From the sequence record PQ666542: a DNA stretch of 64,000 bases, one strand, 5' to 3'. Numbering within the stretch: the first letter of the stretch is position 1; the number at the start of each line of letters is the position of its first letter. The stretch is from Shigella phage sb4. Position numbers and translations under genes: made by a program. Positions 46,833-47,302 of the stretch are shown here, in pieces. The notes below the pieces were generated by a model. The model was not told where the DNA came from and did not search any database. It saw only the letters and a program-made list of their open reading frames with translations.

Positions 46833-47302
46833 TTTAAACTCTTTCTAAGCTGCTTCTTAAATGAAGCTATTAATTGTGTTTTAGTGTCAGATTCATTATA
46901 TTCAAATCCTCTTTGAAGCATCTCAGCCATCATTTCCTCTTTTCCTAAACGAGAAAATTCCTTTGATTTATCTCCAACGAAGTTAGGGTGAATATTATTT
47001 TGGGTGTAATCGGATTTTAAATAAGTAAGTAAATTTTCTAACCATTCAAGATAATCAACGCCTTGTCCCTTTAAGCCAGAACGATTAAATTTGTGCTTCA
47101 TTTAACCTTCCGCTGCATTGCAGAGATTACAGAGCAATCCACGTACCTTTCCTGCTTTTGGTCCATTTAATTCATGGTCATGGTCAAGGTGATTAGCTTG
47201 AACGTCAGGATTTAGTTCTCGTTGGCAAATTAAGCATTTACCATTTTGTGCATTATAAAATTTTTGTTTTTCTTCTTTGTATAATTTGCCAGTCAATAAC
47301 AT
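46829..47302 (-). CDS. 49: endonuclease VII gp49; in-frame TAA at 47102-47104
   Basis: track ORFs 47102..47302 and 46829..47101 contiguous in frame; 158 codons = T4 gp49 157 aa. Confidence 0.85.

Follow-up and report, generated by a model that had tools for sequence, protein, structure and literature searches.

Gene 49 and its in-frame stop codon

The window (the whole stretch of DNA analysed, 64,000 nt) covers the first 64 kb of a Tequatrovirus resembling pSs-1 and sb2. On its minus strand, gene 49, which encodes recombination endonuclease VII, occupies positions 46829..47302 (158 codons including the terminal TGA) and is interrupted by an in-frame ochre codon, TAA, at codon 67 (47102..47104, minus strand). 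The ORF list accordingly holds two pieces on the minus strand: an N-terminal ORF of 66 codons plus the TAA (47102..47302) and a C-terminal ORF of 90 codons starting at Met68 (46829..47101), which abut and lie in one common frame. Around the site the minus strand reads GCA GCG GAA GGT TAA ATG AAG CAC, the TAA being 47104..47102. The ORF list has nothing of note on the opposite strand at this site.

When the two ORFs are joined, their translation aligns with T4 endonuclease VII (PDB 1e7d) from residues 1-157 to 1-157 with E = 5.5e-104 (phmmer against PDB chains), differing from it only at D17N and at the stop; this match is far beyond chance. Pfam places PF02945 (Endonuclease_7) at residues 9-96 of the intact 157-aa protein and PF09124 (endonuclease VII dimerisation domain) at residues 104-157, the latter within the 90-aa ORF. 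In the repaired 157-aa protein each of the two exceeds its cutoff score; in the sequence as written they fall on separate ORFs. The first-pass annotation had read the two contiguous ORFs as the 158 codons of gp49, and the PDB and Pfam matches together with the annotation of relatives bear this out. It had also supposed that the stop replaces Gln and named an alignment with T4 gp49 as the check: the joined ORFs align over 1-157 with the stop opposite Gln67, and the codon is CAA (Gln67) in every relative examined, namely sb2, pSs-1, sb3, sb1, PP01 and T4, all six with an uninterrupted gene 49. The uninterrupted ORF of about 157 codons by which gp49 is recognised is thus broken here by the TAA at codon 67. 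The underlying change, CAA to TAA, is a C>T substitution on the coding strand, equivalent to G>A at plus-strand position 47104.

The 66-aa ORF covers only positions 12-64 of the 82 in the PF02945 profile, so the stop lies within the catalytic domain rather than between domains. Read from the translation, this piece holds the zinc ligands Cys23, Cys26, Cys58 and Cys61 as well as active-site residues, namely Asn62 and a His-Asp cluster spanning residues 38-43; these roles follow the literature on endonuclease VII (Giraud-Panis & Lilley 1996 and Raaijmakers 1999, as cited in PMC10956419). The 90-aa ORF is identical to a nested 90-aa CDS annotated in PP01 and RB27, where the CDS starting at Met68 is an annotation laid on uninterrupted genes. 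Endonuclease VII works as a dimer whose subunits are elongated, and it removes branches from DNA ahead of packaging (PMC10956419; PMC3012670); since the enzyme is dimeric, a 66-aa fragment lacking PF09124 should be inactive.

The surroundings of the gene are ordinary for the lineage, with nrdD downstream and a 58-aa ORF followed by pin upstream, the same order being annotated in sb2, pSs-1 and PP01. The neighbouring nrdD (45016..46832, minus strand) is a single gene of 605 codons, as in pSs-1 and sb2. RNA folding predicts a hairpin just upstream of the gene 49 ATG (47309..47333, minus strand; 10 bp, -18.1 kcal/mol, z = -4.2); the AAGGUAAGGG Shine-Dalgarno region lies within it, and a T-run comes after it. 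Judging from this predicted fold, it could terminate transcription of the upstream genes, gate the translation of gene 49, or do both.

Uniqueness of the variant

A 71-nt query centred on the TAA found no exact match in 50,697 phage records, the best agreeing at 70 of 71 positions, and the exact 66-aa gp49 product does not occur among about 15 billion public proteins. In the comparison of five genomes described below, the change at codon 67 is likewise private to the window. The same lack of exact copies among the roughly 15 billion proteins applies to the 262-aa truncated NrdD and to seven intact conserved proteins of the window (gp45, gp61, gp55, NrdG, Pin, 49.2 and UvsX). Homologues of 66 aa would have spoken against joining the two ORFs; a homologue search with the 66-aa fragment returned only a 61-aa fragment at a contig end, a 91-aa frameshifted protein and a 42-aa rearranged remnant. 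No natural 66-aa family was found, and the reading of the two ORFs as one gene stands.

In IMG/VR the exact 27-mer containing the TAA had 0 matches; the wild-type 27-mer also had 0, which makes that collection uninformative for the gene 49 site. The three IMG/VR matches to a degenerate pattern were discarded as chance, all of them lying outside any gene 49.

Two relatives of gp49 have odd C-termini. That of Shigella phage CT01 is 42 aa long, with residues 1-30 joined to a Pin-like tail (LETQISFSERAF), and that of Escherichia phage UPWr_E4 is 158 aa long with its last 20 residues different. Both look like rearrangements or frameshifts in those records.

Stops and frameshifts along the window

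Measured against sb2/pSs-1 gene models, the window carries 33 in-frame stops (28 TAA and 5 TGA) along with a few stop-losses, lost starts and frameshifts. Examples of the stops are found at 1090, 8001, 7251, 15136, 32045, 33162, 33456, 33817, 38955, 46046 and 47374. Projecting the sb2 models onto the first 50 kb, 29 of 90 CDS are damaged, whether by an in-frame stop, the loss of a stop or start codon, or a frameshift. A codon-by-codon comparison with sb2 gave 23 nonsense substitutions (19 TAA, 4 TGA and 0 TAG), with stops standing in place of nine different residues (E, K, L, Q, G, S, R, Y and W), while at 6 positions sb2 has a stop and the window a sense codon; several of these 6 are private nonsense changes of sb2 itself in the five-genome comparison. 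With pSs-1 gene models, the window-private nonsense changes in the first 50 kb number 25. The last 14 kb add 8 further in-frame stops and one frameshift in 31 CDS.

The genes affected include several of the replication machinery. Stops fall at codon 178 of the DNA polymerase, at codons 45 and 143, and at codon 245, of the two clamp-loader subunits, at codon 59 of exonuclease subunit 1 (gp47) and at codon 143 of a topoisomerase subunit; rIIA, dda, denB, modA and nrdD carry lesions too. The polymerase stop lies near 32045, those of the clamp loader at 33162, 33456 and 33817, and that of gp47 at 38955. From T4 genetics, the DNA polymerase and the clamp loader are indispensable, and gp47 and the topoisomerase subunit are also counted essential. 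As the polymerase and clamp loader are indispensable, the lesions cannot all be real in a propagated phage.

Both neighbours of gene 49 are hit as well. The 58-aa ORF upstream has a private CGA>TGA nonsense change at its codon 50 (47372..47374, minus strand), which on the plus strand is G>A, the same change that makes the gene 49 stop. In nrdD, codon 263 is changed from AAA to TAA (46044..46046, minus strand, private to the window), and there is also a 1-base deletion near 45308. With the same type of lesion in about 30 other genes, the stop is nothing peculiar to gene 49.

The closest records show where such lesions occur and where they do not. sb2 is colinear with the window over 50 kb at 97.2% identity, shares its coordinate origin and has the same D17N change relative to T4 gp49. 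A 67-nt stretch recurs at two distant places in this group of genomes; the window copy at 54571..54637 and the distant sb2 copy at 3226..3292 are 98.5% identical. More broadly, pSs-1 (KM501444) and sb1, sb2 and sb3 (PQ666539-41) are colinear with the window at 96-97% identity and have gene 49 in the same place, none of them with the stop. Other lesions are nonetheless present in two of these records. sb1 (PQ666539.1) has 26 private nonsense changes, and its annotation splits many genes, essential ones among them, into two or three parts (topoisomerase, rIIA, dda, gp41, polymerase, gp46 and nrdD); its excess of substitutions is mostly G>T and C>A, to which the window adds a large excess of A>T and T>A. 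sb2 (PQ666540.1) has 5 private nonsense changes, two of them in the DNA polymerase. The damage in sb1 and sb2 indicates that GenBank records of this phage group with such lesions exist.

Private substitutions and purifying selection

We called a substitution private when one genome differs and the other four agree, considering the window, sb2, pSs-1, sb3 and sb1 over 50 kb aligned. The window has 516 private CDS substitutions, 48% of them at codon position 3, with 211 synonymous, 278 missense and 25 nonsense changes and a transition:transversion count of 238:278. The two clean genomes look different: pSs-1 has 283 (82% at position 3; 234 synonymous, 49 missense, 0 nonsense; 252:31) and sb3 has 297 (77% at position 3; 232, 64 and 0; 251:46). 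The transition:transversion ratio is thus 0.86 in the window versus 8 in a clean relative. Set against pSs-1, the window departs in codon position (chi-square P = 4e-19), in substitution class (chi-square P = 4e-29) and in nonsense changes (Fisher P = 5e-9). The window-private substitutions lack the signature of purifying selection. They are spread along the whole window, and nearly all of its excess consists of transversions towards A/T (A>T, T>A, G>T and C>A).

When the excess substitutions (252-308) were scattered randomly over the coding sequence of pSs-1, 23.9-26.3 nonsense changes were predicted (95% range 15-36), compared with 25 observed; on top of a natural background like that of sb2, the simulated missense and synonymous changes match the window totals. 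At the window's private nonsense rate, gene 49 would be expected to receive 0.25 such changes (probability of at least one, 0.22); one stop within gene 49 is therefore not beyond chance.

The random model does not account for everything. TAG makes up 0 of the 33 new in-frame stops versus about 5-6 expected under a context-free model (P about 0.003), so such a model does not fully describe the noise. The bases next to the private substitutions showed no strong link to homopolymers and no strong tendency to copy the neighbouring base, signatures that would have pointed to a particular sequencing platform. Among the 25 nonsense changes just 4 are transitions, the gene 49 stop, a C>T change, being one of them. 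It belongs to a run of consecutive private changes spanning the gene, at 46266, 46644, 47104 and 47374, all of them G>A on the plus strand; the interval from 46172 to 47632 contains no private transversion, and two of the four changes make stops in adjacent genes. This local G>A run may reflect chance or a locally different error process.

Interpretation of the gene 49 stop

The TAA in gene 49 is indistinguishable from the other stops, about 32 in number, and we consider it very probable that it arose as an error in the sequence or consensus, or as unselected noise of another kind, and that it does not mark a split gene, a recoded one or a meaningful mutant. As one of more than 30 stops scattered at random in an error-laden genome, it is almost certainly a sequence error. 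In the scenario we favour, a single-base CAA>TAA substitution would have been laid on an otherwise ordinary gene 49 as part of a noise layer of approximately 250-310 unselected, A/T-directed substitutions (about 0.6% of bases) and a few indels, superimposed on a normal pSs-1/sb2-like genome. The noise could have entered at base-calling, in the consensus or in the assembly, or the record could have been corrupted in another non-biological way; a technical cause, as opposed to mutation, is what we infer from the sequence. The phage itself would then almost certainly encode an intact 157-aa endonuclease VII, presumably a junction resolvase of the usual kind, a domain-swapped dimer that removes branches from DNA ahead of packaging.

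It is unlikely that the TAA is instead a genuine ochre mutation of the phage's gene 49, although a few local features would suit one. Such a mutation could give a null allele, leaving a 66-aa fragment without the end of the catalytic domain or any dimerisation domain and a packaging defect of the gene-49-minus kind, or it could split the enzyme, with translation terminating at the TAA and restarting at the adjacent ATG (Met68) to yield a 90-aa C-terminal fragment. The ATG does follow the TAA immediately, a Shine-Dalgarno-like GGAAGG lies four bases upstream of that ATG, and a 90-aa product is what PP01 and RB27 have annotated as a nested CDS. Moreover, C>T is a transition, the commonest natural class, whereas the noise excess consists of transversions, and the only four private changes of the 1.4-kb stretch around the gene all being G>A on the plus strand could mean that a different process operated locally. 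Against this stands the company the stop keeps, since a plaque-forming phage cannot have all of the roughly 32 co-occurring in-frame stops and the frameshifts, including those in the polymerase and clamp loader. The TAA is also unique to the window among public phage records, and it cuts inside PF02945, leaving a 66-aa fragment without PF09124 that should be inactive.

A naturally split resolvase, in which residues 1-66 (zinc/catalytic) and 68-157 (dimerisation) are made separately through TAA-ATG reinitiation and reassemble into an active enzyme, is very unlikely; it would draw on the same adjacent ATG and has the same cut through the catalytic domain to contend with. If true, it would be of modest interest.

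Stop-codon reassignment or efficient suppression, with TAA and TGA read as an amino acid so that the genes are not truly interrupted, can be given next to no credence. The many in-frame TAA and TGA codons and the absence of in-frame TAG would fit it, but nine different amino acids are replaced in place of one consistent residue, which effectively refutes it. The stops are, furthermore, private to the window, relatives about 97% identical keeping sense codons; TAA (55) and TGA (32) terminate 87 of 95 genes (TAG 6), among them gene 49 with its own TGA; and frameshifts and stop-losses accompany the stops, whose count fits random substitution. A cognate suppressor tRNA would be expected under this reading; the first 64 kb of the genome, which make up the window, contain no tRNA gene. 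That gene 49 should naturally consist of two ORFs or be nested in this lineage, akin to the nested proteins of T4, whose gene 49 reportedly has two nested products and has a second CDS in RefSeq, is just as hard to credit, because nested products are read in one frame from a gene without interruption and require no stop codon, the T4 start is at GTG codon 53 and not at codon 68, codon 53 is GTA here, and all relatives examined have an uninterrupted 157-codon ORF with no natural 66-aa homologues found.

If the TAA is noise, as we prefer, the main value of the observation lies in quality control, both of the window and of the GenBank relatives sb1 and sb2. Given unselected substitutions at about 0.6%, flags of interrupted genes, split genes or in-frame stops in this sequence should be discounted unless they are shared with an independent genome, since they probably stem from the same noise. 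A real stop would simply make this a common kind of loss-of-function allele, in a gene that has been studied very thoroughly.

Comparison with T4 gene 49

Apart from the stop, the gene resembles its T4 counterpart closely. T4 gp49 (PDB 1e7d/1en7/2qnc) is identical to the window protein at 155 of 157 positions, and the two have in common PF02945 and PF09124, the zinc-ligand cysteines, the His, Asp and Asn residues and the neighbours nrdD and pin. The neighbourhoods differ in detail: in T4, pin directly adjoins gene 49 without the 58-aa ORF found in the window, and T4 nrdD has a group I intron with I-TevII and the adjacent mobC homing endonuclease, both absent here.

T4 gene 49 reportedly specifies two nested proteins, as the title of an early report puts it, and the T4 RefSeq record has a second CDS for a nested 105-aa gene 49 product starting at GTG codon 53. 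This codon (47144..47146, minus strand) is GTA in the window, and also in sb1-3, pSs-1 and PP01, so the nested GTG start is absent and the nested product of T4 is probably not made in this lineage. We rejected the nested 12-kDa T4 product as an explanation of the two ORFs on the same ground.

A known parallel to a premature stop in this gene, if that of the window is real, is the set of classical conditional-lethal nonsense mutants of T4 gene 49, in which junction resolution is lost and the packaging of branched DNA is blocked. Those are single mutations, selected in the laboratory and propagated on suppressor hosts, whereas the stop described here is one of about 33 scattered along the window.
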